A DNA stretch of 32,000 nt from Candidatus Lokiarchaeum ossiferum (GCA_025839675.1 CP104013.1:3150001-3182000), one strand, 5' to 3'; counted from the stretch's first letter, positions 781 to 24,000 are shown. The notes: generated from the letters alone by a model not told the origin. Numbers and translations are program-made.

Positions 781-1755
781 CTACAATGGATACTTTTTTT
801 GAAAATTTTGTTCATATCTTGCCTTAGCAGATGATGAGGTATAATTCTGAGTTTGCGGTCCTAAAGTTTCAACAGAAAATGAAGATAAAGTGGCACCCAT
901 TTGGCATGCTTCTAAAATGGAACAGTCATTAGCTATACCAACTAATAAACCCGCTCGAAAAGCATCTCCAGCCCCAGTCGTATCTAACACCTTCGAAGGT
1001 TTACAAATGCCAACATGAATGATTTCCTCATCGAAGAAACAATCGGAACCTTTATTGCCTTTTGTTATTATAACTCTAGAATTTATTTTCAATAAATCCT
1101 CGATTGACATATTTAATTTCTCAAGAATCATGTTGACTTCAAATTCGTTCCCAATCAGCATATAAGCGAGTGGGATCACTTCTTCAAGCATTTCTTTAGA
1201 AAAAGCGGGCGTTACCTGCCCTGGATCAAAGATAAAAGGTATCTCAAGCGACTTCAATTCTTTTGCCCATCCCATCATAGCCATAACATTATCTGGACTT
1301 ACTGATGCAATCTTTATCCCCGAATTTGTTATATTCTTCTTTTTCAAATTGATTTCGGGACATTTTTTCATTGCTCCTTCATGAAAAATAATCATTTGAT
1401 TGTGATTCTCATCATTCACAATATAACATGAAGCAGTAAATAAATCAGAATGAATATTTCCTCTGAAAATTAATGAGGGAAATCTCTCCATATGTTTTTG
1501 ATAGCCTAAATCAATGAAATCTTTACCTACAGAAGTGATAACTTGCACTGGACTGTCCAATTGTGCAATATTATATGAAATATTACCTGAGGTACCTCCA
1601 AAATTTATTTTCTTTGAATGTGGCATTACTGCGAGATTAAACACTTTTTTCTCTGGATCTGAAGTCAAATTCTTATTCAAATCCCCTCCGAAATCCATTA
1701 TATAATCATAGGCAATAGATCCTAATACAAGAATATCTTTATTACTCATAATCAC
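781..1755 (-). CDS. PfkB-family carbohydrate/nucleoside kinase
   Basis: 324-aa ORF. It has an N-terminal LVLGSIAYD segment and GG dipeptide (NFGGTSGN). The C-terminal PfkB signature DTTGAGDAFRAGLL is present. Substrate cannot be assigned from sequence alone. Confidence 0.85.
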   Translation of the reverse strand: MIMSNKDILVLGSIAYDYIMDFGGDLNKNLTSDPEKKVFNLAVMPHSKKINFGGTSGNISYNIAQLDSPVQVITSVGKDFIDLGYQKHMERFPSLIFRGNIHSDLFTASCYIVNDENHNQMIIFHEGAMKKCPEINLKKKNITNSGIKIASVSPDNVMAMMGWAKELKSLEIPFIFDPGQVTPAFSKEMLEEVIPLAYMLIGNEFEVNMILEKLNMSIEDLLKINSRVIITKGNKGSDCFFDEEIIHVGICKPSKVLDTTGAGDAFRAGLLVGIANDCSILEACQMGATLSSFSVETLGPQTQNYTSSSAKARYEQNFQKKYPL

Positions 1756-1871
1756 ATTGGTTTAACCGATCCAAAAAAAAAAGGTTTTAGAATCCAAACA
1801 AAAAGGAACTGAAAAAGTATCAATTGTTGATGAACAAGGCTAGTTTCCCTTCAATGAATACGTAAATTTAA

Positions 1872-1956
1872 AGGTCCCGCATGAACAGCGGACCAATATG
1901 GTCCGTAAAAGAAAGTACCCCGGAACGGGGCGAAATCAAGGTGATGTGACCATCAC
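1872..1956. ncRNA. Candidate structured RNA or leader: cluster of four GC-rich hairpins
   Basis: Hairpin 1 pairs ggtcccgc with gcggacc (1872-1893). Hairpin 2 pairs ggacc with ggtcc (1889-1903) and shares an arm with hairpin 1. Hairpin 3 pairs ccccg with cgggg (1917-1929). Hairpin 4 pairs ggtgatg with catcacc (1939-1956). The cluster sits in a 485-nt AT-rich spacer between the DinB stop and the kinase start. No known RNA family was recognised and the strand is unresolved. Confidence 0.25.
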
Positions 1957-2240
1957 CATCCAAAAAGACAAAATAAAATTCATGCGGAGACCAATATTCT
2001 AATAAATTCAAAGAATATAAATTCTGAGATTATTCATGATAGGTTTAACCCCGTTATTTTGTTATGGATTACAAGAAATAGATCGAAAATTCAATTATGT
2101 CGGTCACCCTTATTTACCTTCCATCGGATTTAAAACAAAATCAATTCAAAATTTTAAGATATAATTAATATCTCGCAGGAAAGATCAGTATTTCTATTAA
2201 CAATTTCCCAATACATGAAAAGAAAAAGAAAAAAAATACC

Positions 2241-2744
2241 TTAACTATAATCGTAGATAAATCCAACAGGGAGTTTGATCCCTAATAATCGTATATATAA
2301 GGTTAATTGTCCCCGATGATGCACAACTTCTTCCTGAATTGTCATCAAGGCTTGGATTCCAGCTAATTTGAATCCATGCCAACAATGGAAGGTAATTTCT
2401 TGCTGCAATTTGTCTTCTGTCAACGATTCAAGTGTTTCGTGGAAGTAAGTCTTTATTTTCTTTATATAATCTTTAATTTGATCCAGTGTAGCACCTGTTT
2501 TTGGGGTTGGAATTTCTGCAAAATCTTCATTTTCCAATTTCCCTTTTCGTACTGCTTTCGAATAGGCAAATACCATCTCATACATATGTGCCACCAATTC
2601 CCCTAAAGATAGAGAGCTTTCATCCCCACAGGGTTTAAAATTCACAGCATCTTCAGAAATTTTGGTCAGTAGTTTATCGACGACTTTCATTTGGTTGTTT
2701 AACAAATGTAATAATGTTCCCTTAACGCTCTGTAATTGCGACAT
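2241..2744 (-). CDS. DinB-family (DinB/YfiT-like four-helix-bundle) protein
   Basis: 167-aa ORF. The spaced His residues are typical of the DinB superfamily (LVAHMYE ... VVHHRGQLTLYIRLLG). The HHRGQ motif lies near the C-terminus. Confidence 0.7.
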   Translation of the reverse strand: MSQLQSVKGTLLHLLNNQMKVVDKLLTKISEDAVNFKPCGDESSLSLGELVAHMYEMVFAYSKAVRKGKLENEDFAEIPTPKTGATLDQIKDYIKKIKTYFHETLESLTEDKLQQEITFHCWHGFKLAGIQALMTIQEEVVHHRGQLTLYIRLLGIKLPVGFIYDYS

Positions 2745-2862
2745 ACATTAAATAGAACATATCCTATATTTAAGACTTGGTGGATGAAAATTTATCAGAT
2801 CCCAAAAAGAATTGAAATTTTTTTTCATGAAATTAATATACTTTTACACTTGTTATTCTATC

Positions 2863-3327
2863 ATGACCAATCCAGCAGTGGTACGCAAAATCAATCCTGA
2901 TGAACTGGACCAATTATTGGAGCTCTACTCCTATTTTCCCTCAAACGTTGAACCCCTACCCTCTCCCGATATTATTCAAGTAACATGGAATTCCATCATG
3001 GTCAATCCACATCTTCATTATTTCGTTGTTGAATATGATAATAAGCTCGTTTCAACTTGCAACTTAGCCATCATCCCGAATTTAACTCATGGAGTCCGAC
3101 CATTGGGTCTTATAGAAAATGTCGTCACCGCTAAAGCCTATGAAAATCATGGGTTTGGGCAAAAGGTGCTCCACTATGCCAAAAAATGGGCTAAAAAACA
3201 TCGCTGCCATAAAGTGGTCTTACTCACTGGTTCCAAACAGCCGCGGACTTTAAAATTTTATGAAAAAGCAGGATTTCAACGAGGGATAAAAACAGGGTTT
3301 GTCTCCACATTAGATGATGTCGTGTAA
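2863..3327 (+). CDS. GNAT-family N-acetyltransferase
   Basis: The acetyl-CoA binding core is VVTAKAYENHGFGQKVLHYAKKWAKK (R/Q-x-x-G-x-G/A type) followed by FYEKAGF. I prefer the ATG at 2863 (MTNPAVVRKI...) over the TTG at 2812 in the ORF track. The extension is hydrophobic junk and the paralog at 3349-3806 aligns from this point. Confidence 0.8.
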   Translation: MTNPAVVRKINPDELDQLLELYSYFPSNVEPLPSPDIIQVTWNSIMVNPHLHYFVVEYDNKLVSTCNLAIIPNLTHGVRPLGLIENVVTAKAYENHGFGQKVLHYAKKWAKKHRCHKVVLLTGSKQPRTLKFYEKAGFQRGIKTGFVSTLDDVV

Positions 3328-3948: not shown

Positions 3949-4086
3949 AGATGTACCATATGCACTCAAATACATAATTCTTAACACCAAAATTCCTAGA
4001 AAATTGCTTGGCGTAAGATTTCGAGTATAATCCTTCTCTATGATAAAGTTTTAATTAATCAAAAACTCAAAAAAAAAAGAAAAAAA

Positions 4087-7000
4087 TTAAACAATTTCAA
4101 TCCAAAAAGCTTTTGTTCCATGATAATCTATGGTGAAAGTCTTAGCAAATAAGTCGGTGTCCGAAGGAATAAATGTCTCAAATTTTAAAGAAAATGATTC
4201 TCCTTCTTCAAATTTTAATTGAGATTCAAATTTAAGAGTTATCGGCCCAACAGGAATTGTGGTCCAAGCACCATAGTTTCGATTATACTCATGATCATTC
4301 ACCATTTCAATTTCCCAAGGATTATTTGGTAATAACTCCTCAGTTATACCGATTTGTTCACGTTGAGAGTAATATTGAGATCTGGGATCAAAAGTAATCC
4401 CTGGATAATCTGTATTGAATTCACCTAAGAATTTTCTGAAGCGAAGGATTTCTTTGCTAGGATCTTGCTCCAAAATAATCCTTTGATAAGCGTGAACAGA
4501 ATTGGCATCTTCGTATTTGTATCCTATTCCTTTAACGTTTCCCCAATATTCAATTCCAACTATCACATCTTCTTCAATATTAAGGATAGGATTTTTAACA
4601 GTGAATGAGACTTTTTCTAATTCCCCTAATTCAACATCAATACCTGCACCTCCTGTATCTTTAGATCCAATAGAAACACCGGCTTTTAGTTCAATTTTTT
4701 TTGTAGAAAAAGATGTTAAACCTGGTGTTATATCCCAATCCAAATTAATCCCATTTGGAGATGTTGGAATATAGATTCGATATTCTGGAATGACAATCTT
4801 TTCAGAAGATATCAAATCCACCGAATTTTCAACTGCCTTTCCAAGTTTTATGTTATCCATATAGACTTGGAAGGAAGCATCATTAGTATTACTTGTATAG
4901 ATTTCGAGTTCCGTTACATCCCACATTTCAGTGCTGGCACGAGGTTCATCAGCGATCTTCACACCATCAACCCAAGCTTGCCATTGATTATTATCCATAT
5001 CCATTAGTAAATCGATTTTATACATGCGATTTGATTCTGGCAAACAATAAATATCATCAGGACCAATATAACTGTTGCCATATACATCATTAGTGACCGA
5101 AAGAACGTTTTCTGGAAAATCACCATAAGTTTGGTGCAAACTTAATCTAATATAATCTTCGTAGGAAACAATATCATTATCTTTGAAAATGATTGTAAAA
5201 TCTGGAATGCCAGTGTATCCGATTTCAAATGTGAAAAGATATTTTCCATAATTATCCATTTCAATATCTTTACTAATTTTCACTTTTTTATTATTTAAAA
5301 TTCCTCCAGTACTGGAATCTACAAATTCTATAACCCTTCCATAATAATCAGTTATTGGAGAAATTATAACATTAACAGAACAATCTGTTCCTTCAGAAAT
5401 AGTATAACCAGAAGGATTTGTTCCAATACCTGCATTCTCATAATTATCCGTAACAGGGTATCCAGCATCCTTTGGATTAGAAAAATACAACTTGATCTCG
5501 TCATCATCAGTAAACCCATCACTATCAGTATCTTCTAATCCAGGATTCGTAGTAAGTTCATAATGCTCATATCCGTCATTATATGTATCACCATCAGAAT
5601 CTGGATTTGTAGGATTAAGGTTCACATAACCTTCATATTCATAGATGCCAGTAGCTTCAGAGCTTAAATCATCTCGTACAAAATCTAATTCTTGCTTATC
5701 AGTCAATCCATCAAAATCTGAATCAATTTCTGAGGGATTAGAATAATATGTTTTGTAGAATTTTGGTCGAGAATTTGGATCTGAATAAATTAAATCATAT
5801 CCAGTTACTTCTTCGCTATCAGTTAAACCATCTTCATCTTTATCTGCTAAAGCATTCAAAGGATTTGTATTGTATACTAAAACTTCATCTCCATCAGATA
5901 TACCATCATTATCTGAATCAGAATCACTTGGAGATAAATCATCTAACCTAGAATAATGAGCTTCATAGTTTCCATCCCATATATTAAACCAATTATAAGA
6001 ATATTCTTCATAATTGGACAAATCATCATTATCAGTATCCCTATCCACATTTGGAAGATGGAAATAGCTTCTGTATCCTTCAGAAGATACTCCTAACCCA
6101 TCAATTCCAAAATTCATAGCATCATATCCACTATGTGTGTACATCCCAAGCGAGTTGATGTAGGAATAAGAAAGAACTGGAATATCACTTCCCACTTTTT
6201 GACCATCAATCCAAGCATCAACTTGATTATTGCTGAAATCTAATTCAATGTGAACTTGATACCATTGATTCAATTGATAATCAAGAATTGGAATCCAAGT
6301 TCCTGTATCTCGTCTAATTCCAAGATGACCACCCCAGATTGGCATGTAAAATGGTTGTCCTGATCCGTGAAAAGTTAGATATGCATATCCATTTGATGAA
6401 GGCGATGGAGAATACCACCAGAAGTCAATAGAATCACCATCCTGACTCATAGTATTAAAACTGACAGAAGCGGTTGGACTTGTTGTTGGTGTGTTTCCTT
6501 GGGCAAGATATAATGCATTGGGATGATTTTCAATATTTTTAATTGTTGCAGTTGCTGTTCCAGGATTATAAGTCCACTCTTGCCAATTTGTGGTTCCAAT
6601 TATTTTGAAGCTTTCAATATCGGGATGATTTGAAAATGCTTCATACCCTTGGGAGGAAACTCCTAAACTATCAAATCCAAAATTCATTTTTTGTTCAGTA
6701 CCCTGTGTATACATGAAAATATTGTCAATTTCAGAATATGGAAGCACTGGAATATCTGATAGAGTTTTTATTCCATTTGCCCATAAATCCACTTCATTAT
6801 TTGTGAAGTCAAATTCAACGTGCATATGATACCAGGTTGACCATTCAAAATTGAAATATTCCCATGCACTTGTATCCTTTCTTATTCCAAAATGATTTGA
6901 CCATATTGGGAAGTAAAAGGGCCGTGAACTCCCATCTTGCAAGCAAATATATGCATAACCAATCGTATCGGAAGAAGGAGAATACCACCAAAAATCAATA

Positions 7001-8445
7001 TAATCATTATCTTGATTCACCGCAGGAAAAGACACAGCTACAGTTGGACTAGTTATTGAATTAACATGATCTTCTTGGGAAAGATAGAGAGAAGTCGGAT
7101 GATCTCCAATATTCGTAATAGTAGCAACTTCCGTCCCAGATTGAATATTAAAATCATTCCATTCAATACTATTTTCAACAAAGAAGCTATCAATCGTATA
7201 ATGATTATTATAAGCTATATACCCTTCAGAAGACACACCCAGAGCATCAAAGCCAAAATTGGTATCACCAAGATCACTGTGGATATACATATTGATGGAA
7301 TTAATGAAGGAGTAATCTAGGACTGAAACATCAACAAGTGATTTTTCCCCATCAACCCATAAATCCACTTCATTATTCGTAAAATCAAATTCAACATGCA
7401 CATGATACCACGTTGAATAATCAAAATTGAAGTAGTTACTCCAGCTTCCAGAACTATCGCGAATTCCAAAGTGATTAGCCCATATAGGAAAGTAGAAGGG
7501 TTGTCCTGTATCTTGTTTAAATGTAATATATGCGTACCCATCGGAACCAACTGAAGGCGAAAACCACCAAAAGTCAAGATAATCTTGATCGTCATTCAAT
7601 GTATTGAAATTAATGGATGCTGATGGATTAGTGGTTACTGGATCTTCTTGAGATAAATAGAGTGCATTATAGCGGCCATCAATATCAGTCAATACCGCTA
7701 ATTCTGAACCTTGAGATATACTCCAGCGGTTCCAATCGATGCACTCACTTTGATCATATCCTATCCCACTACCATCCATAGGATTTAGAGGATTTAAATT
7801 ATTGATATATTCCCATCCATCAGGCATTCCATCTTGATCTGTATCCATATTGTTGGGATCTGTTCCCAAAGTATTCGTTTCGAGCCAATCATTTAACCCA
7901 TCATTATCAGTATCATCAACAAGATAAACGTAAATCGACTCAATTCTTTTTCCTGTTAAGTAAAAGCATTCTTCCCCATCAGCATATTCGGGAGAATCAC
8001 CTAAGGATTGAATGTGTCCACGATATCGGATTTGATATTTATACTCAGGACAGTTTACTAGTCGAATTGCAAATTTTTCAATCTGTAGTGCCTGTCCTCT
8101 TGTTCCAGCATAATTTCCATCACTTATCCACTGTGTCCACCCATTTCCTTGAATATATACTTTGTATTCAATGTCACAATCAAATGTATTGTCTACAATA
8201 CTTAATTGAATCCCTTCTAATCTTTTTGCAATACCTTTATGACCAACCCATTGGTGGTCAGTTCCAACAATATCCCCATAGGATTGTTGATGAACCAAAA
8301 CGGATAAAATTTGGCTACTAACGTTTGGTACGTTCAACTCCCTTTGAGATTCTTCTTGATCCTCTGTAAATCCAAATTCTCCAGAATTGGATAGAGTTAG
8401 GCTAAGAAGAAGTAAAAATGCAATATATTTTTGTTGATTTTTCAT
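4087..8445 (-). CDS. Large secreted multi-domain surface protein (ChW-like repeats, TSP3-type Ca-binding repeats, 3-4 LamG/concanavalin-like domains)
   Basis: 1452-aa ORF with signal peptide MKNQQKYIAFLLLLSLTLSNSG. Residues 45-175 carry ChW-like units (YKVYIQGNGWTQWISDGNYAGTRGQALQIEKFAIRL). D-x-D-x-D-G acidic repeats occur at aa ~177-225 and ~800-1010 (DTDNDGLNDWLE, DTDQDGMPDGWE, DSDNDGISDGDE, DSDGDTYNDGYE). Three ~190-aa tandem domains follow, plus a fourth related domain (QWQAWVDGVKI...MDNIKLGK). Confidence 0.85.
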   Translation of the reverse strand: MKNQQKYIAFLLLLSLTLSNSGEFGFTEDQEESQRELNVPNVSSQILSVLVHQQSYGDIVGTDHQWVGHKGIAKRLEGIQLSIVDNTFDCDIEYKVYIQGNGWTQWISDGNYAGTRGQALQIEKFAIRLVNCPEYKYQIRYRGHIQSLGDSPEYADGEECFYLTGKRIESIYVYLVDDTDNDGLNDWLETNTLGTDPNNMDTDQDGMPDGWEYINNLNPLNPMDGSGIGYDQSECIDWNRWSISQGSELAVLTDIDGRYNALYLSQEDPVTTNPSASINFNTLNDDQDYLDFWWFSPSVGSDGYAYITFKQDTGQPFYFPIWANHFGIRDSSGSWSNYFNFDYSTWYHVHVEFDFTNNEVDLWVDGEKSLVDVSVLDYSFINSINMYIHSDLGDTNFGFDALGVSSEGYIAYNNHYTIDSFFVENSIEWNDFNIQSGTEVATITNIGDHPTSLYLSQEDHVNSITSPTVAVSFPAVNQDNDYIDFWWYSPSSDTIGYAYICLQDGSSRPFYFPIWSNHFGIRKDTSAWEYFNFEWSTWYHMHVEFDFTNNEVDLWANGIKTLSDIPVLPYSEIDNIFMYTQGTEQKMNFGFDSLGVSSQGYEAFSNHPDIESFKIIGTTNWQEWTYNPGTATATIKNIENHPNALYLAQGNTPTTSPTASVSFNTMSQDGDSIDFWWYSPSPSSNGYAYLTFHGSGQPFYMPIWGGHLGIRRDTGTWIPILDYQLNQWYQVHIELDFSNNQVDAWIDGQKVGSDIPVLSYSYINSLGMYTHSGYDAMNFGIDGLGVSSEGYRSYFHLPNVDRDTDNDDLSNYEEYSYNWFNIWDGNYEAHYSRLDDLSPSDSDSDNDGISDGDEVLVYNTNPLNALADKDEDGLTDSEEVTGYDLIYSDPNSRPKFYKTYYSNPSEIDSDFDGLTDKQELDFVRDDLSSEATGIYEYEGYVNLNPTNPDSDGDTYNDGYEHYELTTNPGLEDTDSDGFTDDDEIKLYFSNPKDAGYPVTDNYENAGIGTNPSGYTISEGTDCSVNVIISPITDYYGRVIEFVDSSTGGILNNKKVKISKDIEMDNYGKYLFTFEIGYTGIPDFTIIFKDNDIVSYEDYIRLSLHQTYGDFPENVLSVTNDVYGNSYIGPDDIYCLPESNRMYKIDLLMDMDNNQWQAWVDGVKIADEPRASTEMWDVTELEIYTSNTNDASFQVYMDNIKLGKAVENSVDLISSEKIVIPEYRIYIPTSPNGINLDWDITPGLTSFSTKKIELKAGVSIGSKDTGGAGIDVELGELEKVSFTVKNPILNIEEDVIVGIEYWGNVKGIGYKYEDANSVHAYQRIILEQDPSKEILRFRKFLGEFNTDYPGITFDPRSQYYSQREQIGITEELLPNNPWEIEMVNDHEYNRNYGAWTTIPVGPITLKFESQLKFEEGESFSLKFETFIPSDTDLFAKTFTIDYHGTKAFWIEIV
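6067..7737 (-). repeat. Three tandem ~190-aa (~575-nt) intragenic domain repeats inside the 1452-aa CDS
   Basis: The repeats are aa ~237-411, 427-603 and 619-793. They share W..W....G...A.I.NI..HP..LYL.Q......SP.A.VSF......D.IDFWW.SPS...GYAY......PFY.PIW..H.GIR......W.......W...H.E.DF.NN.VD.W..G.K...D.PVL.YS.I....MY......NFG.D.LGVSS.GY. Confidence 0.85.
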
Positions 8446-8914: not shown

Positions 8915-11134
8915 TTACTTTAACTTCAGTTTAATATTGTCAATTAATTTTTCTTTGATAAATCCCTCTTCTCGAATTAATCGAAAATATTGCCCTTCCT
9001 CAAATTTAAACCCAAATTGATCCCCACACTCCATGAAAACTTTGTGGCGCAATACCTTCCCAGGAAAATGTTTCCACTCTTCACCACTGGCAACTATTTC
9101 CTGTATTCGGTCTGAATATTTTGCAAACTGTTTGAGATAATACGGTTTATCTACAGATATATGACATTTTTCGCTGGTTAGTATATTCACAGTATTAAGA
9201 AAATTATCCAGCAATTCATTTTCCGATGTTGTACCACCCTTGATTCCCTCGATTATCGGTTTTATTAACTCTTTTTTTTCATCCTCCGAAAATACCTTTG
9301 GAAACTCCTCGAAAAAGAATTTCAACTTCTTTGTCATCTTCATTGTCTCATCGATAGAAGTTTTGATTAGATTAGACACCTTTTCAAGGGTAATCTCTTC
9401 CTCTGAATCTGGATTGGATCTTTCAATAAGTTCTTTGAGTAGCTCAGGATTGAGGTATAAATTTTCGATTTCCCGCACTGGGAGTAGTACAATTTTATCT
9501 CGGATTTCTTTTGCCTTCTTATTGCGAATTTCCTTATTACCTTCATCATTATCCAAAATAATGAGAAATTTGAAGTTTTTATTGGTAAAATTCTCTATCA
9601 ACTGTGCATTTGCCCAATAATGTAAATCTCGTTTGCCTCCTAACGGTTGTAGTATGATTCTTTGCTCTTCTAAAATTTCCGGAATTGCTTGTTTGAAAAA
9701 CTCTACATCATCCTTTCCTTCCACCAATATCATCCCATTATTCATGAGATAATCTGAAGGTTTGATGCCTAAATCTTCAAAAACTTGTGGTATATTTTCT
9801 GCTTTTTCATTATATACATGAGTTATTTTATCACTTCGTTTTACCCTATGAATGCTCCATCCCTTTTTCATACTATCCAAGAAATATGGTGAATGAGTAG
9901 TAATTAAAACTTGAAATCGGCTCAAATTTTCCTCGATTATTGATAGGAGTATTTTTTGCAAATCAGGATGTATAAAAAGTTCCGGTTCTTCAATTAACAG
10001 CAATCCATTTTCTTTTGTTTCTAATATTGCAACTAAAATTGTTACCAATTGCTGAATCCCCTTCCCCAATTTGTCAAAAGTAAGTTTGTACTCTAAATCT
10101 TCTTCTAATACATAAGGAATTGTCAAGGGATATTTCTCAATAGGAATGTTTGTTTCTGGGTAATAATCAATATTATAAAGAGAATAATCTGGTTGATGTA
10201 AAAAATTTTGATTGATCTCTTTAATATTAGGATACAATTTGCTCAGATAGTGGTTGAGTTTTTCTAATTTTTCTTTCTCATTTGTGTTATAGCTAAGAAT
10301 TTTTAGTGGGACATTTTCTCCATCATATTCAAAATGAAAAGGCTTTGTAGAAGCCTCCACCTTATAGAATGGTAGGAATGAACGATCTTCAACTACCATA
10401 TTCATCTTGGAATAGAAATCTATAATCGGTGATAAGAAAAAGTGCAATAAAGGATTGCTATGAACTCGTTTATCAAAAATGGATCTATTATTCAGAAGTT
10501 GATTGCCAGGATTCGGAAATCCAGTATTGAAAATCGAATTTGGAAAAAAATGCCATTCAAATGAATTACTATTAGCAATGAGTTTTTTCCTTGGTTTGCT
10601 AAGTTCCATGTTTCTAATAGAATATTCATGTCCTACTGAAGTCCTATCCACAAAATTATAGGAAATCAGTCCATTTTTGAAAGTAACTCTTCTAATAAAA
10701 ATTTCATAACTTGACCCAGGAGCTACTTCAAATTCATATACAATATTTTCAAATGCCTCCTCTAATAATATCGATTCCTCAGGGTTGAATCGATTATCTT
10801 TGAAAAATTTAAATAATTTTGGGTTTTTCAAGTAGTCTTTTGAATGTTCCCTAAATAGCCTTGATGCTTGATCACGAAAATATTCCAAAATCTTTGATCT
10901 ATCAAATTTGAATTCTAAATTTATCTTTACCGGATGCTTCTGGGAATTGAACTTAATCAATTTTTTATCTAAAAGCTTCCCCGACCTTATACTCTTTAAA
11001 ATTTTAAATAAATTGCTTTTCCCTGAATTATTAGGTCCAATTATAACGCCTAAATCCCCAATATTCTCGAATACTTGGTGATCGAAACTTAGCAGATTGA
11101 ATATTTCTATTCGATGCAACCGCGAAATTGTCAT
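8915..11134 (-). CDS. OLD-family / PARIS-like fused ABC-type ATPase plus Toprim (DUF4435-like) nuclease
   Basis: 739-aa ORF. Motifs: Walker A GPNNSGKSN; signature-like LGKGIQQL; Walker B LLLIEEPELFIHP; H-loop ITTHSP. The C-terminal Toprim has MILVEGKDDVEFF (catalytic Glu), ILDNDEG (DxD) and REIENLYLNP. Confidence 0.8.
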   Translation of the reverse strand: MTISRLHRIEIFNLLSFDHQVFENIGDLGVIIGPNNSGKSNLFKILKSIRSGKLLDKKLIKFNSQKHPVKINLEFKFDRSKILEYFRDQASRLFREHSKDYLKNPKLFKFFKDNRFNPEESILLEEAFENIVYEFEVAPGSSYEIFIRRVTFKNGLISYNFVDRTSVGHEYSIRNMELSKPRKKLIANSNSFEWHFFPNSIFNTGFPNPGNQLLNNRSIFDKRVHSNPLLHFFLSPIIDFYSKMNMVVEDRSFLPFYKVEASTKPFHFEYDGENVPLKILSYNTNEKEKLEKLNHYLSKLYPNIKEINQNFLHQPDYSLYNIDYYPETNIPIEKYPLTIPYVLEEDLEYKLTFDKLGKGIQQLVTILVAILETKENGLLLIEEPELFIHPDLQKILLSIIEENLSRFQVLITTHSPYFLDSMKKGWSIHRVKRSDKITHVYNEKAENIPQVFEDLGIKPSDYLMNNGMILVEGKDDVEFFKQAIPEILEEQRIILQPLGGKRDLHYWANAQLIENFTNKNFKFLIILDNDEGNKEIRNKKAKEIRDKIVLLPVREIENLYLNPELLKELIERSNPDSEEEITLEKVSNLIKTSIDETMKMTKKLKFFFEEFPKVFSEDEKKELIKPIIEGIKGGTTSENELLDNFLNTVNILTSEKCHISVDKPYYLKQFAKYSDRIQEIVASGEEWKHFPGKVLRHKVFMECGDQFGFKFEEGQYFRLIREEGFIKEKLIDNIKLKLK

Positions 11135-11234
11135 ATATTATTAGTTTTGGACAAAGGTGTAGTTAAATTTTTAGATTAAAACTCAATTTCCTTTAAACTT
11201 TGATAAGGAAAAAAAAAACACGTATATAATTAAA

Positions 11235-11540
11235 TCAATATCCATATTTTTGCATGATATCAGTAATATCTCTTCCATAGTATTTCACGTAGGCCACAAT
11301 TCGCCCATAGGTATCAATCGCCACTTGTTTAATGGTAACCAAAGATCCTACAGGTATTAAAGAGGATAATATTCTTTTTGCTTTGAAATAACCAGATTCT
11401 CCCTTTTCAGGTGTGTTAATATTAGCAATTCGAACATATTTATTACCCGTTATAATGAAAGTATCTCCATCTACAATCGCAGCTACTTTTTTTCGATATA
11501 TATTTGATGTTGGGTATTTCTTCGAAATTGAAGATGTCAT
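11235..11540 (-). CDS. Staphylococcal-nuclease-like (SNase/thermonuclease fold) protein, short form
   Basis: 101 aa. VAAIVDGDTFII...YVRIANINTPEKGE...AIDTYGRIVAYV matches the SNase pattern (V-DGDT, R-x-x-x-I-x-x-PE, D-x-YGR). The start ATG (11540-11538) overlaps the stop TGA (11539-11537) of the upstream gene as ATGA. Confidence 0.7.
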   Translation of the reverse strand: MTSSISKKYPTSNIYRKKVAAIVDGDTFIITGNKYVRIANINTPEKGESGYFKAKRILSSLIPVGSLVTIKQVAIDTYGRIVAYVKYYGRDITDIMQKYGY

Positions 11541-12169
11541 ATTTTATCACCTCCATCCAAACTCCTAAGATATGTTTTAAATTGATTTTCTGAAAGCGCA
11601 AAGCAGTTATTAGAATTGTGATACTTGTTAATATCTAGCAACCGCTCGTCAGTATAAAAGGAACCACTGCAAATGGCATAAAACTGCCCAGATTCATTTG
11701 ATTCCGAATTTTCAAACAAGCGAACAATATTTTGCATCCTACTTGATTGAGAACCTCCACTCCCATCTGAATGAAATCGAACAAAATAGGACCTCTTTCC
11801 TTTAATTTTACATGAAAGATGAATTGAACTTGATTTTACATTCAATCGCTTTTTTGTGATCTTTCCGTCTGTAATGTAGAGTCTTGGAGTTCTCCAATGA
11901 GTGATCAAATTTGAAATAAAAGTCTGGTTGGTCAGATATTTCGTAAATTCCCTCAGATAAGTATTTCCTCGCTTCAAATTTAGGTCCTTACTTACGCATA
12001 TTGCAGCGAATAATTTATCTTCAAGAAATTTCTGTTCTATATCCTTAATTGGAATTCCCGTACGGTCATGTAACCGGATAAGCTGTTTTACCTTATGGCC
12101 CTTCATAATTCTCTTCCGAATTATGGAGATTTGCGTGGTGACGTCCTTTCTAATCTGAAATTGGTACAT
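11537..12169 (-). CDS. Hypothetical protein, 210 aa, translationally coupled to the SNase-like gene
   Basis: Long ORF with non-repetitive composition and a 4-nt ATGA overlap with the downstream gene. No family was recognised. A D-x(n)-S-x-K arrangement (ITDGK...HLSCKIK) and the HSDGSGGSQSSR motif could suggest a restriction-endonuclease-like fold, but that is a guess. Confidence 0.55.
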   Translation of the reverse strand: MYQFQIRKDVTTQISIIRKRIMKGHKVKQLIRLHDRTGIPIKDIEQKFLEDKLFAAICVSKDLNLKRGNTYLREFTKYLTNQTFISNLITHWRTPRLYITDGKITKKRLNVKSSSIHLSCKIKGKRSYFVRFHSDGSGGSQSSRMQNIVRLFENSESNESGQFYAICSGSFYTDERLLDINKYHNSNNCFALSENQFKTYLRSLDGGDKI

Positions 12170-12462
12170 TAATTAATTACTTCCTTTACTGAGTGGTGGT
12201 TTGTGTGTGACAGAATCAATCCTTCGAGTAAGCTATTTGATCAATCTACGTTGACTTACGCGCGCGATCGTTACCCGTTACAATAACGAAGGTCACACGC
12301 GTATTTAAATCAAGGTATTTATAGAGAAGTACCCTTCCTCAACCGACAAAAATTCAAAAATTTCACTGTTGGATAGAAAAACACGCAAGAATTCCAATAT
12401 TTCATAATGTGAATATTTTTAATATTTCACTCGTACTGTTAATATTGTTAGTGAAAAAAAAA

Positions 12463-13281
12463 ATGAATTCCTTAGATTTAGTTGAAGAACGAAATATTTT
12501 AGTCGTTCCAATCGGTTTAGAAAATGAGCGGGTTGTTAAAAGCTGCCAAATTTACCCTGTGAACGTCATTTATCTCTTGAAGAGTAACTTTGAATCTAAT
12601 TCTGATCATAAGGAAAAAAACTCATCCCAATGGGGAATAGAACAATACTCAAAAACAATTGCATCTGAAGTCATTAAGAAATTTGAAAATACTTTTTTTG
12701 AAATTCAACCAAAAAATTGCCATCTCGGCTCCCTCCCGAGCACAATTTCTATTTTAAATGACATCTATGAAATTGAACAGAAAAAGGGAAAATTGAACAA
12801 AATTTACATCAATATCTCCACCGCATCCAAATTATTCGCAATTGGGGCCTATATTTTTGCCTCTCAATTCCCCGATATATGCAAACTTTTCTATTTGGCC
12901 ACAAATAATTATCTTCTCTTGGAACACTTGAAATCGGAAAAAGGGGATTTAGAAAAATTAAAAACGGAATTTAGAAAATTTGGTCTAACAAAAGGACCTT
13001 TCAAAGTTGTGAACATCCCAATTCTGAAATCGGACCCTTTTTCAACCGATGAAAAACGATTGATCAATTATTTAGCCCAATTTGACCACATCAATTCGAT
13101 AAAAGAAATATTGGAAAATCTCAAAAAGGATACCAACGCTAAAGAAAGAATGAATCTTCGCAGATCCCTTGAAAAACTCGAGAAAAACAATTTGCTGATA
13201 CTAAAAAAAAGTGGAAAATCGGTTCAGGTTCTTATATCTGATGAATTGAAACAGCTCGCTGGCTCCTTTATACTGGAGTAG
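12463..13281 (+). CDS. Putative Csa3/DUF6293-like (HFX_2341-type) regulator: Rossmann-like N-domain plus C-terminal winged HTH
   Basis: The N-terminus ILVVPIGLENERVV resembles the V-x-P-x-G-x-x-x-x-R start of Csa3/DUF6293 proteins. Also seen are IYINISTASKLFAIGAYIFAS and LFYLATNNY. The C-terminal part (DEKRLINYLAQ...RRSLEKLEKNNLLILKKSGKSVQV) looks wHTH. I prefer the ATG at 12463 over the GTG at 12409. Confidence 0.45.
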   Translation: MNSLDLVEERNILVVPIGLENERVVKSCQIYPVNVIYLLKSNFESNSDHKEKNSSQWGIEQYSKTIASEVIKKFENTFFEIQPKNCHLGSLPSTISILNDIYEIEQKKGKLNKIYINISTASKLFAIGAYIFASQFPDICKLFYLATNNYLLLEHLKSEKGDLEKLKTEFRKFGLTKGPFKVVNIPILKSDPFSTDEKRLINYLAQFDHINSIKEILENLKKDTNAKERMNLRRSLEKLEKNNLLILKKSGKSVQVLISDELKQLAGSFILE

Positions 13282-14857: not shown

Positions 14858-15541
14858 ATGAAAAAAAAAATATTTGCATATTATCGGATTTCAACTGAGA
14901 AACAAAAAAAAAAGAATACTCAGGAAAATCAGAAAATTGCAATTTATAATTTTGTTGAAGGTTTAGACGTTGAAATTGTGAATGAATTTGAAGATTTGGG
15001 TATTTCAGGGGCAGATAATGACCGCCCACAATTCAATCTAATGCTTTCTAAATTGAATGAAGTAGAAGGATTAGTAATCTATGATTTAGACCGATTAACG
15101 AGAGATTTTGAAATGGGAGTAAACTTAATGTTTATGTTGAAAAATTCAAAAAAATCTTTGTATATTGCTCGAACCAAAGATATCAAAGATTTTTCAGATG
15201 ATTCCGAGCAATTAATGACCATTATCAAATCATGGGTTTCTGCACTTGAACGAAAGAAAATTAAAGAAAGACAAAAAATAGGAATTCAACGATATAAAGA
15301 AACAAAAGGTCGTTGGGGTAGAAAGAAATCCTTTGGAAAATATAAAAATCCAGAACAATTTTGGAAAAACTATGATATCTATAGAGATTTGGGTATTTCC
15401 AAGACATCCTGTGCAAAATTATTAGGTGTCTCTCGTTCAACGATGAATAGACGGATAGAAGAACGTGAAATAAATAAGTCGAAAATCAAAACTACCCCAA
15501 TTAATAACAAAATCAAAGAATGGAGCGAACCAAAACTTTAA
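14858..15541 (+). CDS. Small serine recombinase (resolvase/invertase type) with C-terminal HTH
   Basis: The N-terminus IFAYYRISTEKQ carries the Y-x-R-x-S-T-x-x-Q catalytic-Ser motif. Also present are VIYDLDRLTRD and a C-terminal HTH GISKTSCAKLLGVSRSTMNRRI. At 227 aa it is of resolvase/invertase size, not that of a large serine integrase. Confidence 0.85.
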   Translation: MKKKIFAYYRISTEKQKKKNTQENQKIAIYNFVEGLDVEIVNEFEDLGISGADNDRPQFNLMLSKLNEVEGLVIYDLDRLTRDFEMGVNLMFMLKNSKKSLYIARTKDIKDFSDDSEQLMTIIKSWVSALERKKIKERQKIGIQRYKETKGRWGRKKSFGKYKNPEQFWKNYDIYRDLGISKTSCAKLLGVSRSTMNRRIEEREINKSKIKTTPINNKIKEWSEPKL

Positions 15542-15808: not shown

Positions 15809-16597
15809 ATGATTAGAATGATTATTGCATATCTTGACGAAACTGGAGATCCTGTCTATCGAAGGGGTGGCCCTAAATGGTTTGGTATAACTGCCGCAAT
15901 CTTTCATGATTCAAAATTACTTGATGGAATAAATGTGATGAAGTCATTCAATCAAAGTAAATCCGAAGAATATGACTGTGATTTTGAAATACATGCAAGG
16001 GAATTTTCCAGCTCGAAAAAAGAACCTTATAATGCAATGAAAGTTGAAGAAAAAATAGAATTATTTACAGAATGCTTACATACTGTCAAAAATACTGGTG
16101 CTTCAATTTGCGGTGTGTTTGTTGATAAAGTTAAGCATAGTTATTGGCATGGTAAATATGATTTTTTAAAAAATGTAGTTATGAACCTATTTGAAAGGAT
16201 AGGTAGATATCAGATTGCAAATTATCCTAATGAAGCCATTCTGATATTATATGACCAACCTTCTGCCCATTTAAGACCAATTATTAAACAATATTTCAAA
16301 GAAAGATTAGAAGTCGGTTCAAGATATGTCAAACCTGCGTTTTTCTTGAAAGAAATCTTATATGTTGAATCTAAATTTCATCAACCTATTCAAATAGCAG
16401 ATTTAACAGGATATATTGTAAGAAGATTGATAGAAAAACGTATAGATGGTACATTTTCCAGTTTTCTAAAGTATGTTGATGACTTGTATAAAATAATTCG
16501 ACCAATGTTAGATTTCAATCCAACAACAAAAGAAATATATGGGGCAGGAATTAAAATTATTGAAAGTAATGACAGGAAATATTATGGACGTTTCTGA
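15809..16597 (+). CDS. DUF3800-family protein
   Basis: 262 aa. The N-terminus IIAYLDETGD matches the DUF3800 (Y/I)-x-DE-(S/T)-G motif. Also seen are the mid FEIHAREF and the C-terminal ESKFHQPIQIADLTGYIV (the Q-x-AD-x motif typical of the family). Confidence 0.6.
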   Translation: MIRMIIAYLDETGDPVYRRGGPKWFGITAAIFHDSKLLDGINVMKSFNQSKSEEYDCDFEIHAREFSSSKKEPYNAMKVEEKIELFTECLHTVKNTGASICGVFVDKVKHSYWHGKYDFLKNVVMNLFERIGRYQIANYPNEAILILYDQPSAHLRPIIKQYFKERLEVGSRYVKPAFFLKEILYVESKFHQPIQIADLTGYIVRRLIEKRIDGTFSSFLKYVDDLYKIIRPMLDFNPTTKEIYGAGIKIIESNDRKYYGRF

Positions 16598-18337: not shown

Positions 18338-18868
18338 GTGTTTGAAATTCCGAAAGATGATCTCAATCAAGAAAAAGTCGACTACTTAAAAACCGTCTTC
18401 TCCCACAATCGCAGTATGATCCAACTTGCAGACAACAAAGCCAGCATTTTAATCCGAATTATTGTAGTTATCCTCCCAATTATTTTTGGAATCGATTCCT
18501 ACTTAACTACAATTACTCTCCATAATAGCCTAAAAACCTTTCAATATGTTAGCTTTATCATTTGTATGGTTACCTTCATCATTTCATTCTTCTTATCGAC
18601 AGGTGTTCTAATGGCTCGATTTGCTGAATATGATGATCATATCTTCTTTTCAAATATTGAAAAAGATTCCCTTGAAGATTATCAAAATATTATTGAAGAA
18701 ATGGATGATTATGTCATTTTTGAAGATTATATCAAAGAAAATTATGCAATTGCCAAAATCAATAAAAAAAAGTATCAATGCTACAATATTTCCTTTTGGT
18801 TCCTTAATGCTGCGGTACTTTTATTGGTAATTCGATATATCTTATTGTTTACTTACCTTTTTTATTAA
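18338..18868 (+). CDS. Pycsar-effector-like small transmembrane protein (DUF5706/PycTM-type)
   Basis: 176 aa. The N-terminus ...HNRSMIQLADNKASILIRIIVVILPIIFG fits the x-x-AD-x-KA lead-in followed by a TM helix, as in DUF5706. Further TMs are FQYVSFIICMVTFIISFFLSTGVLM and WFLNAAVLLLVIRYILLF. The GTG start has a TATA-like actataaata (18304-18313) ~28 nt upstream, compatible with a leaderless mRNA. Confidence 0.55.
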   Translation: MFEIPKDDLNQEKVDYLKTVFSHNRSMIQLADNKASILIRIIVVILPIIFGIDSYLTTITLHNSLKTFQYVSFIICMVTFIISFFLSTGVLMARFAEYDDHIFFSNIEKDSLEDYQNIIEEMDDYVIFEDYIKENYAIAKINKKKYQCYNISFWFLNAAVLLLVIRYILLFTYLFY

Positions 18869-18890: not shown

Positions 18891-19604
18891 TTATGTCTCT
18901 CTCCCACTATACGCAAATATCTTGTAATTTTTCAATTCTTGAAAATTTGACTTCATTTTCCGAAAATATGAACAACAATAAAACGGAGGTTCAATTTCCT
19001 CACAATTATCTTTCTTTTCCTTGGATAGTTGAAAGAAAACATCGTACCCAATGCAAATCGTGATTTTTTCTTTAAAAGAAGCATGCTTTTTTCCAATGGA
19101 TTCTAATCTCTTCGCTGCTATTGCCGGTTGTCCAACTATTATCAGTTGAGATTTATTTTTAATACCTATACGTTCGACTTTTATTGTCCCAAAATCAATC
19201 CCAACTCGAATTTTTATCTCTGGAAACTTCTTTTTATCTATAAAATAAACGAGTAATTGAGAGATATATATAGCCGTTTTTAATGCTTGATCACATGCCC
19301 ACTTACCATTTTGATCAGATGAGCAAAAACTAATCATTGCCCCATCTCCTGTATATTTGTCAACAACTCCACCATTCTGACTTACTTCATTAAATACCAT
19401 ATGTAAAACTGGACTAATATATTTAATAAATTCAATCTCTGAGTATTTTGATGAGTTTGCAATATCAAATACCATAATAGAGGCATTTAAGGTTCGAACC
19501 TCTCCAATCGCTATTTCATCATCATTAGGAAACTTATTGATATTCTTCTTTCCTGGATTTTTTTTCTTATTTATAAAACTATTGAGCAACTGTACATCAA
19601 CCAA
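18891..19604 (-). CDS. Class III nucleotidyl cyclase domain protein (PycC-like candidate)
   Basis: 237 aa. Metal-binding motif 1 is IMVFDIANSSKY (h-h-F-x-D-h-x-x-S/F-T type). Motif 2 is DKYTGDGAMISF (K-x-x-GD-G/A-x-h-x-x-F). Also present is IRVGIDFGTIKVERIG...IVGQPAIAAKRLES (h-R-h-G-h-x-x-G ... G-x-x-h-N-x-A-x-R-h-E type). The TTG start is preceded by gaggag 8 nt upstream. Confidence 0.75.
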   Translation of the reverse strand: MVDVQLLNSFINKKKNPGKKNINKFPNDDEIAIGEVRTLNASIMVFDIANSSKYSEIEFIKYISPVLHMVFNEVSQNGGVVDKYTGDGAMISFCSSDQNGKWACDQALKTAIYISQLLVYFIDKKKFPEIKIRVGIDFGTIKVERIGIKNKSQLIIVGQPAIAAKRLESIGKKHASFKEKITICIGYDVFFQLSKEKKDNCEEIEPPFYCCSYFRKMKSNFQELKNYKIFAYSGRET

Positions 19605-19754: not shown

Positions 19755-19830
19755 TGGCGCAGGTGACAGGGATCGAACCTGCGACCTGCCGGTTAACAGC
19801 CGACCGCTCTACCGACTAAGCTACACCTGC
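19755..19830 (-). tRNA. tRNA-Asn (anticodon GUU), CCA encoded
   Basis: The reverse complement folds by hand as GCAGGTG TA GCTT AGTCGGTA GAGC G GTCGG CTGTTAA CCGGC AGGTC GCAGG TTCGATC CCTGT CACCTGC G CCA. All four stems pair and the anticodon loop CT-GTT-AA is canonical. Confidence 0.95.
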
Positions 19831-21090: not shown

Positions 21091-24000
21091 TTAAACATCG
21101 TGCTTTTTGTTATATTCTTCTAACCAATTTTTGAAATGCAAATGAATCCATGCAAGGTTTAGTTTTTTATTAATGAATTTTTTATTCATTCTAAGAAAAT
21201 TAATCCACCAGGTCAACATTTTAGAATTAATAGCTTTTGGATTAATTTTACCATCTGAAGTTATTATTTCTTCAACATATGAATTGTTGACAATTAATCC
21301 CAATCTTACTTGAATTTCTTTTGCTCCTTTTTTGCTGTTAAACTTCCATTTTTCATAATAAGATGTATCGGATAAATGTCTCAAAGTATCAATTAATGAC
21401 ATCTGTGAAAGACTTAGAGCAACCAATAATTTTTTAAACTGATATCGACTGAGTAAAGGGGCTTTAATTCCAATATATCGCACATTCTGAACAAATTTCT
21501 CATCCTTGGTCTGATTGAAATAAAAACGGCGAGTCGTAGAATCATCATAGGGAATATAAAGCGGGGCAAACCCACAAGCGAGATAGGCCAGCAATTGCAG
21601 TTCCTTTTTCAACGCATAAAGTTTGCCCTTGAATTTAGCCTTAAATCCAAGACATTCTAAAAGAAGCCCCCACAACTGCTTTTTGATTTTAAAGGTGGCC
21701 CCAATATCCAAGATCGCTTTGCGCGTGGTTTTTCCCTTGCCATCACCTTGATCCATCTGATACTTCACATTAATGGAATCATGGCGGAGGATTTTATTGA
21801 AGGTTTCCCGGGCTTGAATGGACCGAAGCGAAGGTTCAATGATCTTGAGATCATCAAGAATATCGCGTTCAAAGAAGGAGTCAGCGATGACTTTGGTCAA
21901 TTTTCCTTCAATGGTAAAGTATCGAGTAAGGAGAGTGCGGCGATCCAGCTGAGCACTAAGTAGTTCCAATAACTGCGAATAAGTGAGAAAATTACCAGAA
22001 AAGGGTTCAATCCCACCTTGATAAAACTGCCGGGTAGCATACCGATGCCAAGTATTGAAGATGGTCCAGTTGCCGCGAAAGAACAGGTGACAAAAAAACT
22101 GCAAAAAGACATCCAATGCCAAGGTTTGTTGCGGAACAGGGCATGAAAAATAACGCGGAGAACGGGTTGGTTTGACAAAGAGAGATTGAGTATCCTTCAC
22201 AGAAAAGAGAGGAGTCGACAAGGAGAGATAGATTTTGAAAAAATCATTAATAATTCCAGTGACAACTGTGGTGGGGCGGTTGGATGTTAAAGATGCAGTT
22301 GATGCAGGAAGGAGAGGAAAGAGGGCAGTAGCGGAATTTTTTTTAGTGGTAGTATTTTTGATCAAACTTCCAAAGGCTTCTGGGGTGCCTAGGCGGAATA
22401 TTTTACGTAAGAGTTCGAAAAACAACAGGAAGGGTTTCCAAAAGGGCAGATGCAAAGGATGACGTAGGTTAGCATATACAGCGGTGGTAATATCGGAGCT
22501 CCCATCACCAAGAGTGGTTTGAATGAGGGATTTTTCAGGAGGGGAAAGAACTCGCCATTGGGGACTAAGGGCAACCAGAGTTTCTAAATTAGCAGAAAGC
22601 CAATCTTGACGAGTATCTGAACGACCAGGCAGCAAATCGTGAAGGGCAGACGATGTGAAAATTTGTTCAAGGATTTGGGTTCGGGTGACAAAACCATAGT
22701 GTTCGAGCAGGAGTCCAGCATGCAGAATGTGATTCACAGCAATCCATAAATCGTGAAGGGGCGGTTTAGTTCGCAATTTAGTGACATAGTTCTGAATGGA
22801 TTTCACAAGATTCCAACGGGCAAGGGTTTTTAGAGATTTGGTACACCATGCGGTACAGGCAACGTAGGCAATATTCCGAACCATGGTATAGACATCTTGG
22901 AACCACCCCATCTGTTGAATTTTATTATGGCGCGACTCCAAGAAGGATTTAAAGGTGAAGCGCGCATCCAGGAGTTCTTTAAGGTATTCAAGATGAGGGA
23001 GAGCATTACTTTTAAAAATGGGAGGGTGAGATCCTTGAGATCCGATAGTGACAGATTGGAATGCAACAGTCCCTGCAATGGAAAGAGGAACGGCAAAATC
23101 GGGAAGAGGTCCATAAGGAGTGGAACTTGAGAGCCTTATTTTCCCAGTTTTCCATTCGTGTAATAAACGGCAAGCTTCATCATAAGGGAGATGGAGGGAT
23201 TCCATAAAATAAGTTAAAATGAGAGCTTCATTGGCAGGATAGGATGTTTCATAGAGAATAACAGGTTGACGACTTGATTTCGCTTGTTGAGAAAGATATA
23301 TATATGGGTGGGAATGACAATAGTGCTGGAAGGCTTTTTGCTTCATGGCTTCAAAATATGCCGAGGGGGAGGTATGAGATTGGGAGCGAAGAGTCTTTTC
23401 CATTAAGGAATGAAGAAAAGTGGAAAGATCAAAGGTTTGAACATCTTCCAAGGTGGACACTCTGGCAAAGGGAGATATCAAAGGTCCTTCGAGGGATTCG
23501 AGGAGAGTTAGGAGTTCAGGATCAGCGGAGGAAGAATCCAGGCAAGGTTCAGCAGGCAGAGAATCATCGGAGGGTTGGGATGGAGAAGACGCGGAGGTTT
23601 TTGAAGGGGAAGGATCGGAAGGGGGAGAAGAGGTGCCAGCGGCAGTGAAATATAAAGATCGAGAAAGAGAAGGAGAACGGGATAACGCAAATGACATCTG
23701 GGGTTGGAAGGTCATATAAGGCATAAAGGGGAGATAGGGAGAATAGAAGGCGATTGCTGTGCTTTCCGATGATTCCTGTAATTCTTCCCATTCATCTTCT
23801 GGGATGGGAGGTTGATAAGTAATGAAACGCATTTTTTGACGTTGTCGTCGTTTATGGGATTGAAAAATGTGTTTTTGACGGATTTTGTGTAAAAAATGTC
23901 GGTAATCGCGCAAAAGGTCCATGAATACTCGAAAGGTGACATGAGTAAGGGTTAATTGGAGGGTGTTAAGAAAAGAAAGTAACTCCTGCGCGGACAAATC

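Follow-up and report, generated by a model that had tools for sequence, protein, structure and literature searches.

A PARIS/OLD-type ATPase-Toprim gene beside a probably independent restriction endonuclease-like/SNase gene pair in Candidatus Lokiarchaeum ossiferum

PARIS defence systems are recognised by the combination of an AAA_15/AAA_21 ATPase with a DUF4435 domain, which may be split over a gene pair or fused in one gene (Rousset et al. 2022, PMC9122126), with thresholds of at least 32 bits for AAA_15, at least 27 bits for AAA_21 and at least 27 bits for DUF4435 (PMC9122126). In the classification of OLD proteins, stand-alone genes form class 1 and PARIS forms class 4 (PMC12796447), and for fused PARIS as for class 1 OLD proteins one gene is known to work by itself (PMC9122126, PMC12796447). 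Here we analysed a window of 32,000 nucleotides (nt) from Candidatus Lokiarchaeum ossiferum (GCA_025839675.1, CP104013.1:3150001-3182000; positions are counted from its first letter), in which a gene for an OLD/PARIS-like protein of 739 amino acids (aa) lies next to a coupled pair of genes, one for a 210-aa protein and one for a 101-aa SNase-fold protein. An earlier reading of this DNA (the original prediction) had joined the three genes into one partnership. With moderate confidence, we read the locus instead as two independent units standing side by side in an island.

Gene layout and the ATPase-Toprim gene

The genes and the spacer between them are as follows.

8915-11134, minus strand: 739-aa ATPase-Toprim gene (open reading frame (ORF) call, Pfam and PADLOC)
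11135-11234, minus strand: 100-nt spacer between the SNase and 739-aa genes (read from the sequence)
11235-11540, minus strand: 101-aa SNase gene (ORF call and Pfam)
11537-12169, minus strand: 210-aa restriction endonuclease (REase)-like gene (ORF call)

The three co-directional minus-strand genes described originally are thus present in the ORF listing, and the sequence details reported with them were all located: the ATGA at 11537-11540, in which the stop codon of the 210-aa gene and the start codon of the SNase gene are shared; the T10 run (11209-11218, coding strand) and the TATA-like tttaaa box (11192-11197) inside the 100-nt spacer; and the VEGKDD, DNDEG and REIEN motifs in the translation of the 739-aa gene. 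The SNase ATG is closely preceded by a strong Shine-Dalgarno sequence (GGAGGTGA). The probability of 210 stop-free codons arising by chance at the local base composition is about 3e-7, and the 210-aa ORF is therefore not a chance product of AT-rich DNA. In archaea, oligo-T tracts serve as terminators and TTTAWA boxes as promoters, so that the spacer reads as the end of one unit and the start of the next; the T10 tract is likely to be the terminator of the upstream bicistron and tttaaa the likely promoter of the 739-aa gene. A scan for sigma-70 promoters returned fewer matches than shuffled sequences, its bacterial consensus being uninformative for an archaeal host.

The neighbourhoods of relatives separate the two units. 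Relatives of the 739-aa protein with 30-59% identity, including a same-genome paralogue, were compared across seven loci:

P0003 (59% identity), locus L001: small unknown ORFs and an Rce1-like gene
P0004, the same-genome paralogue NEF87_004846 (54%), L002: Gabija, a cyclase with PycTM and a Schlafen/AlbA_2 gene
P0005 (39%), L025: different neighbours
P0012 (31%), L026 and L027: different neighbours
P0016 (31%), L030: different neighbours
P0015, fused to leucine-rich repeats (LRR; 30%), L031 (2686-5925): different neighbours

Six-frame scans of these seven loci, using a hidden Markov model of the 210-aa family and phmmer for the SNase, found neither gene in any of them (0/7). Equally, none of the approximately 19 distinct loci of 210-aa relatives held an OLD-like ATPase-Toprim gene or an SNase. 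From seven differing neighbourhoods lacking an SNase or a 210-aa relative, the 739-aa gene appears to behave as a stand-alone gene. The proposed partnership between the OLD-like gene and the 210-aa/SNase pair thus found no co-occurrence in either set of loci, and a lack of conserved co-occurrence of the three genes in other genomes is what the original prediction itself had named as refuting the partnership. Because co-occurrence is lacking in both directions, the 739-aa protein passes the PARIS fusion rule by itself, and a T10 tract and a TATA-like box lie between the genes, it is highly probable that Unit A (8915-11134) and Unit B (11235-12169) are independent of each other.

In the 739-aa protein, Pfam recognises AAA_21 (91.2 bits, 1.6e-25), AAA_15 (66.6 bits, 4.2e-18) and DUF4435 (32.5 bits, 9.8e-8, cut-off 27; aa 468-588, nt 9371-9733), and all three PARIS thresholds are passed within one polypeptide. 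The Walker A motif GPNNSGKS is encoded at nt 11015-11038. The best PADLOC model is AriAB (3.5e-28), followed by AriA (2.5e-25) and Old (6e-23), and the closest PDB sequence match is AriA of PARIS (8ux9). The description of this protein as OLD/PARIS-like, with an ABC-type ATPase joined to a Toprim/DUF4435 domain, is therefore borne out. OLD-like_TOPRIM (PF20469) scores 16.7 bits, under its cut-off of 23.2, and is carried by some of the more distant homologues. A profile built from 14 family sequences, in all of which E472, D528 and D530 are invariant, ranks the class 1 OLD protein 6p74 first in the PDB, with a match that spans the ATPase-Toprim junction; the OLD protein of retron Eco8, AriA and GajA are also found. 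The C-terminal half alone, searched against the PDB by sequence, did not return AriB. The protein thus falls between the class 1 OLD and PARIS labels, since it satisfies the PARIS rule and yet its profile ranks 6p74 first; by sequence it is, under either label, a known kind of single-gene ATPase-Toprim nuclease. Gabija, the class 2 OLD type with its adjoining UvrD-like helicase GajB, is set aside by the finding of no helicase domain in the neighbours of the 739-aa gene (the SNase gene and a gene for a 1452-aa secreted protein), and a retron-associated OLD, class 3 with its reverse transcriptase and msr/msd ncRNA, by the finding of no reverse transcriptase domain in those neighbours and of one tRNA only by Rfam in the window.

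Unit A would accordingly be pictured as a stand-alone, single-chain member of the PARIS-type OLD proteins with a promoter of its own, the N-terminal ABC ATPase serving as sensor and scaffold and the C-terminal DUF4435 Toprim nuclease as effector. By analogy with E. coli PARIS, a viral trigger would be sensed by the ATPase, whereupon the Toprim nuclease would be freed and infection aborted. In E. coli PARIS, the activity of the released Toprim nuclease is tRNA cleavage. PARIS is activated by Ocr-like anti-restriction proteins, and cleavage of tRNA follows.

Two further observations concern the 739-aa protein. Locus L004, from the same strain in another sequencing run, departs from the window at two places, a mismatch and an indel, and the indel breaks the 739-aa gene, leaving a 405-aa ORF and a remainder (L004 1134-2588 corresponds to window 9679-11133). 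This indel is probably a homopolymer assembly error and could be a real variant; because the strain is the same, the split says nothing on the dispensability of the gene. Separately, a set of Asgard proteins (Thor/Lokiarchaeota) of 1011-1283 aa carries N-terminal leucine-rich repeats fused to the ATPase-Toprim architecture (P0007-P0011, P0013-P0015, P0017 and P0018); they align with the 739-aa protein along about 98% of its length, at 30-32% identity. The gene of this kind in L031 is stand-alone, and such fusions possibly represent an NLR-like sensor-nuclease architecture.

The 210-aa protein, the SNase-fold protein and the divergent regulator

The 101-aa protein matches Pfam SNase (PF00565) at 27 bits (6.6e-6, cut-off 21) over profile positions 2-73 of 107, as well as the phrog_452 endonuclease profile (4e-12), in agreement with its original designation as a mini-SNase nuclease. 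Comparison with phage nucleases by tblastn gave 29-41% identity. In a BLASTP alignment, its D24, D26, T27, R37, T43, E45, Y78 and R80 correspond to D19, D21, T22, R35, T41, E43, Y85 and R87 of the S. aureus nuclease, N42 stands in place of staphylococcal D40, and the protein ends before the C-terminal helices, so that equivalents of Y113 and Y115 are missing. On this alignment it is a truncated SNase with most catalytic residues kept. Six-frame scans found no SNase relative in any of the related loci compared, and a scan of viral contigs with the SNase gave no match.

The 210-aa protein has no Pfam match, and word-indexed homology searches with it and with the SNase returned self-matches only. 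An exhaustive phmmer search with the 210-aa protein recovered 24 weak relatives, mostly of 200-240 aa. Among the aligned family members, 15 of 22 match PF06300, the Tsp45I type II restriction enzyme family; the window protein reaches PF06300 transitively only, through phmmer matches of 1.8e-11 to 6e-8 to linked proteins scoring up to 31.7 bits (cut-off 25). Tsp45I belongs to group 26 of the PD-(D/E)XK superfamily, and its family was earlier reported to be bacterial, patchily distributed and subject to horizontal transfer (PMC3424549). AlphaFold (AF2) gave an unusable model from the single sequence (predicted local distance difference test (pLDDT) score 35) and a model of pLDDT 89 with the family alignment. 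The top PDB matches of this model in Foldseek were Cdn1, MGME1, VC1899, Can2, Card1, the small subunit of R.BspD6I and Bax1; all PDB matches were PD-(D/E)xK nucleases, with probabilities up to 1.0 and weak E-values. Viral Foldseek matches reached E = 1e-7 and included annotated PD-(D/E)XK and restriction endonucleases. A sequence-profile search of the PDB with the 210-aa family returned nothing meaningful, and tblastn of a family member against plasmids gave no match. The test for a PD-(D/E)xK fold that had been put forward for this protein was therefore positive, through the Tsp45I link, the model and Foldseek, and on sequence and predicted structure we assign the protein to the Tsp45I-like type II REases as a probable distant member with a PD-(D/E)xK fold.

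Relatives of the 210-aa protein were located in 15 genome loci, mostly bacterial, and in most of these the gene is adjoined on its own strand by an ORF of about 305-372 aa. EPFAG-type motifs and (I/V/F)TNPP(W/Y)L motifs, the latter of the NPPY/W kind, are present in nine of the ten such ORFs inspected, and two of the three scanned match the N6_Mtase or Eco57I methylase families. The same methylase arrangement is found in L021 for P0123, the best relative of the window protein. As methyltransferase genes adjoin the bacterial relatives, the family is a genuine restriction-modification (R-M) family.

No methyltransferase domain was detected in the scanned ORFs of the window, and no other family member is as degenerate as the 210-aa protein, in which nearly all conserved polar residues are gone. 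At columns kept in at least 80% of methylase-linked members, the replacements are:

E72 to L; K114 to S; D117 to H
K132 to F; D142 to S; N143 to S
Q144 to R; D147 to N; D168 to S

In the AlphaFold model, the second and third predicted core strands contain the columns D117 and K132, respectively, and these may represent the positions of the PD and xK motifs. Given the missing methylase and the lost polar residues, the window protein is probably non-catalytic. Its ORF is full length despite about 70% divergence from the nearest relative, and this maintenance argues for a remaining role.

Three family members, P0124, P0130 and P0132, likewise have no adjacent methylase; their contigs have a G+C content (GC) of about 30% and resemble Asgard DNA. 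All three have also lost E72, K114, K132, D142 and D147, and have kept D117 and D168. The losses common to this methylase-less subfamily suggest an old change of function and not recent decay. The downstream partner is different in each locus:

L023 (P0124): divergent gene for an HFX_2341_N protein; downstream 48-aa basic ORF overlapping by ATGA
L028 (P0130): followed by a 69-aa Cys-containing ORF, then a SIR2_2 (ThsA/Dsr2-like) gene at 976-1677
L029 (P0132): divergent AAA_14-wHTH (winged helix-turn-helix) gene; membrane proteins downstream

The ATPase-wHTH gene next to P0132 was considered as a counterpart of the regulator in the window and rejected, the two not being homologous. No ATPase-Toprim gene was found within 6 kb on each side of P0132 in L029. 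Two side observations belong here. The JGI metagenome that yielded L028 (3300037245) also yielded P0003, which is the nearest homologue of the 739-aa protein. In L008 (Candidatus Spechtbacteria), an ABC ATPase gene (1555-3138) lies about 800 nt upstream of a Tsp45I-like methylase-REase pair, with one ORF between; this ATPase matches the ATPase part of the family profile at 3.8e-14, and the locus is the only other place with an OLD-like ATPase near a member of the 210-aa family.

Divergent from the 210-aa gene, beyond an intergenic region, lies a gene for a putative transcriptional regulator:

12170-12462, no strand assigned: divergent intergenic region with TATA-like boxes and a patch of about 45 nt
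12409-13281, plus strand: HFX_2341/Csa3-like CARF-wHTH gene (290 aa from a GTG start; 272 aa from 12463 in the gene call)

The regulator matches Pfam HFX_2341_N (58 bits, 1.7e-15) and the PADLOC model CARF3--CARF (2.7e-14). HFX_2341 of Haloferax mediterranei has been shown experimentally to be a transcriptional repressor affecting cas genes (PMC11434293). In L023, a homologue with 40% identity is likewise encoded divergently beside P0124, and this regulator is the sole recurring neighbour of the methylase-less REase-like genes, in two loci. A metagenome scan with the CARF-wHTH protein added one further locus, L024, in which the upstream neighbour is a Cys-rich protein and no REase-like gene is present, so that the pairing of regulator and REase-like gene rests on two loci; a scan of viral contigs with the same protein gave no match. 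Within the intergenic region, a GC-richer patch at approximately 12262-12312 (minus strand), downstream of a TATA-like box, reads GTGTGACCTTCGTTATTGTAACGGG and partly resembles L023 at approximately 1405-1480 (GTATGACTCCGGTTTTAGTTACGGG). Repeat and alignment analysis yielded only this weak common patch, two sequences being compared, and it could be an operator or an element of a 5' untranslated region.

Taken together, Unit B may be a bicistronic operon ending at the T10 tract, with the 210-aa gene first and the SNase gene second, coupled by the ATGA overlap and the strong Shine-Dalgarno sequence. The dead REase-fold protein would act as a DNA-binding or regulatory partner of the SNase nuclease, and the operon would probably be repressed by the divergent HFX_2341/Csa3-like CARF-wHTH protein. 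We put this specific mechanism forward tentatively, as a possibility with somewhat less than even prospects.

Competing readings and the surrounding island

Several points weigh against the account of two independent units with a joint function for the second. The main uncertainty is that comparable contigs for Unit B are few and short, and its comparative depth is very thin. The 210-aa/SNase pair is seen in one genome only, L003-L005 being the same strain. The L023 contig ends 320 nt past its REase-like gene and the L028 contig begins at its REase-like gene, and in both an OLD-like or SNase gene could lie beyond the sequenced end. The catalytic role of the lost residues is deduced from conservation and secondary-structure position rather than from a solved Tsp45I structure. 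ATGA overlaps are common between unrelated adjacent genes, and the label of the 739-aa protein is ambiguous between PARIS (class 4) and class 1 OLD.

Among the alternatives, the one that survives best denies Unit B a joint function: the 210-aa gene would be the decaying remnant of a horizontally acquired R-M system whose methylase has been lost, and the SNase an unrelated nuclease of the mobile-element type that abuts it by chance. The extreme degeneracy of the window protein fits such decay, as do the bacterial, patchy and horizontally transferred Tsp45I family (PMC3424549), the resemblance of the SNase to phage and plasmid endonucleases, the change of downstream partner in every subfamily locus and a resolvase nearby. 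Decay is harder to reconcile with a 210-codon ORF left intact in AT-rich DNA at such divergence, with the five losses (E72, K114, K132, D142 and D147) common to the methylase-less subfamily, with the conserved regulator neighbour and with the coupling of the pair by ATGA and a strong Shine-Dalgarno sequence. We therefore regard a mere relic as unlikely, at roughly one chance in a handful.

It is also conceivable, if improbable, that in Asgard archaea a methylase-less, dead REase offshoot came to serve as a subunit for DNA recognition or sensing, with interchangeable downstream effectors under a divergent Csa3/HFX_2341-like regulator, which would amount to a new modular defence system independent of the PARIS-like gene. 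The effectors would then be the SNase in the window, the SIR2-domain protein in L028 and the membrane proteins in L029.

Unit B as a toxin-antitoxin (TA)-like pair, with the REase-fold protein neutralising an SNase toxin until infection or stress, is very unlikely in our view. Type II TA modules typically encode the neutraliser first and the toxin second, with a 4-nt overlap, and the gene order and overlap of Unit B fit this pattern; the SNase retains most catalytic residues and the 210-aa protein looks non-catalytic. Against it, searches of Pfam, NCBIfam and PADLOC turned up nothing homologous to known antitoxins or TA families, none of the other subfamily loci has the SNase partner, and toxicity of the SNase would have to be assumed.

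Least probable of all is a single new three-gene defence system in which the pair would be an accessory sensor or effector of the OLD/PARIS-like nuclease, for while the genes are co-directional and close (100-nt gap), encode nuclease-related folds in all three proteins and lie in a defence island, and the short L023 and L028 contigs leave room for an OLD-like gene, co-occurrence is absent from the seven loci of 739-aa relatives and the approximately 19 of the 210-aa family, the 6 kb on either side of P0132 hold no ATPase-Toprim gene, the two units have a terminator signal of the oligo-T type and a TATA-like box between them, and a single gene is known to be enough for fused PARIS and for class 1 OLD proteins (PMC9122126, PMC12796447).

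The two units lie in a stretch of approximately 8.9-19.8 kb that is a defence or mobile island. Its other features, and the gene directly downstream of the 739-aa gene, are:

4087-8445, minus strand: gene directly downstream, for a secreted protein of 1452 aa that carries ChW repeats and bacterial thrombospondin type 3 repeats
Within the approximately 8.9-19.8 kb stretch: 346-aa membrane protein
14858-15541, plus strand: serine recombinase (Resolvase and HTH)
15809-16597, plus strand: DUF3800 protein
18338-18868, plus strand: PycTM effector (27.6 bits)
18891-19604, minus strand: nucleotide cyclase (Guanylate_cyc)
19755-19830: tRNA-Asn (ARAGORN and Rfam)

The 1452-aa secreted protein appears unrelated to defence. 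The presence of a serine recombinase and a DUF3800 gene suggests that the island is or was mobile; these two genes lie between the regulator and membrane-protein genes and the Pycsar-like pair. The latter is convergent, not co-directional, and the same convergent layout occurs in L002 (3233-3946, plus; 3968-4243, minus). The original prediction had placed the genes inside a tRNA island in support of a defence role. The defence-like setting stands, with the Pycsar cyclase and its PycTM effector, the resolvase and DUF3800, and the tRNA island was rejected, as ARAGORN and Rfam each find one tRNA-Asn, about 7.6 kb away. Further along, an 1818-aa ORF (21091-26547, minus strand) has no Pfam match at E <= 0.001 and lies in a stretch of higher GC (0.40-0.44 against approximately 0.32); it is adjoined on the same strand by a gene for an 858-aa FtsK/HerA-like ATPase (26563-29139, minus strand), and the two could be another defence or mobile module.

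Should the reading as two independent units hold, the defence catalogue gains no new architecture of OLD partners from this locus; what it gains is a single-chain PARIS/OLD nuclease from an archaeon (Lokiarchaeum) and a clear case of an REase fold maintained without methylase and active site, which bears modestly on the exaptation of R-M components. Interest in the dead REase-fold protein would grow if it were a sensor that works with different effectors. Few Asgard archaea are in culture, and L. ossiferum is among them, so that mapping its transcripts and working with its proteins should in principle be possible.

Comparison with known systems

Set against Tsp45I-like R-M systems, the 210-aa protein is homologous over its full length to PF06300-matching proteins of about 200 aa and shares the PD-(D/E)xK fold, whereas it lacks a methyltransferase and has lost the acidic and lysine residues that the family conserves; the window gene is moreover archaeal, coupled to an SNase gene and divergent to a CARF-wHTH regulator. 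The SNase shares its OB-fold core and the DGDT, R, TPE and YGR motifs with the small phage and plasmid endonucleases of phrog_452 and with staphylococcal nuclease, and differs in being cut to 101 aa, in carrying N for staphylococcal D40 and in having no C-terminal helices. The regulator resembles the Csa3/HFX_2341 proteins in its HFX_2341_N domain and C-terminal winged-helix-like region, but adjoins an REase-like/SNase operon instead of cas genes.

Like the class 1 OLD proteins (phage P2 Old and Thermus scotoductus OLD, 6p74), the 739-aa protein is encoded by a stand-alone ATPase-Toprim gene in varied neighbourhoods; unlike them, it scores under the OLD-like_TOPRIM cut-off and over that of DUF4435. 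From described PARIS it differs in its Asgard archaeal host and in an extra helical C-terminal region of about 150 aa, and it is only distantly related to E. coli PARIS, with PDB matches confined to the ATPase motifs. What it has in common with the fusion form of PARIS is the succession of an ABC ATPase of the AAA_15/AAA_21 type and a DUF4435 Toprim domain within one chain.

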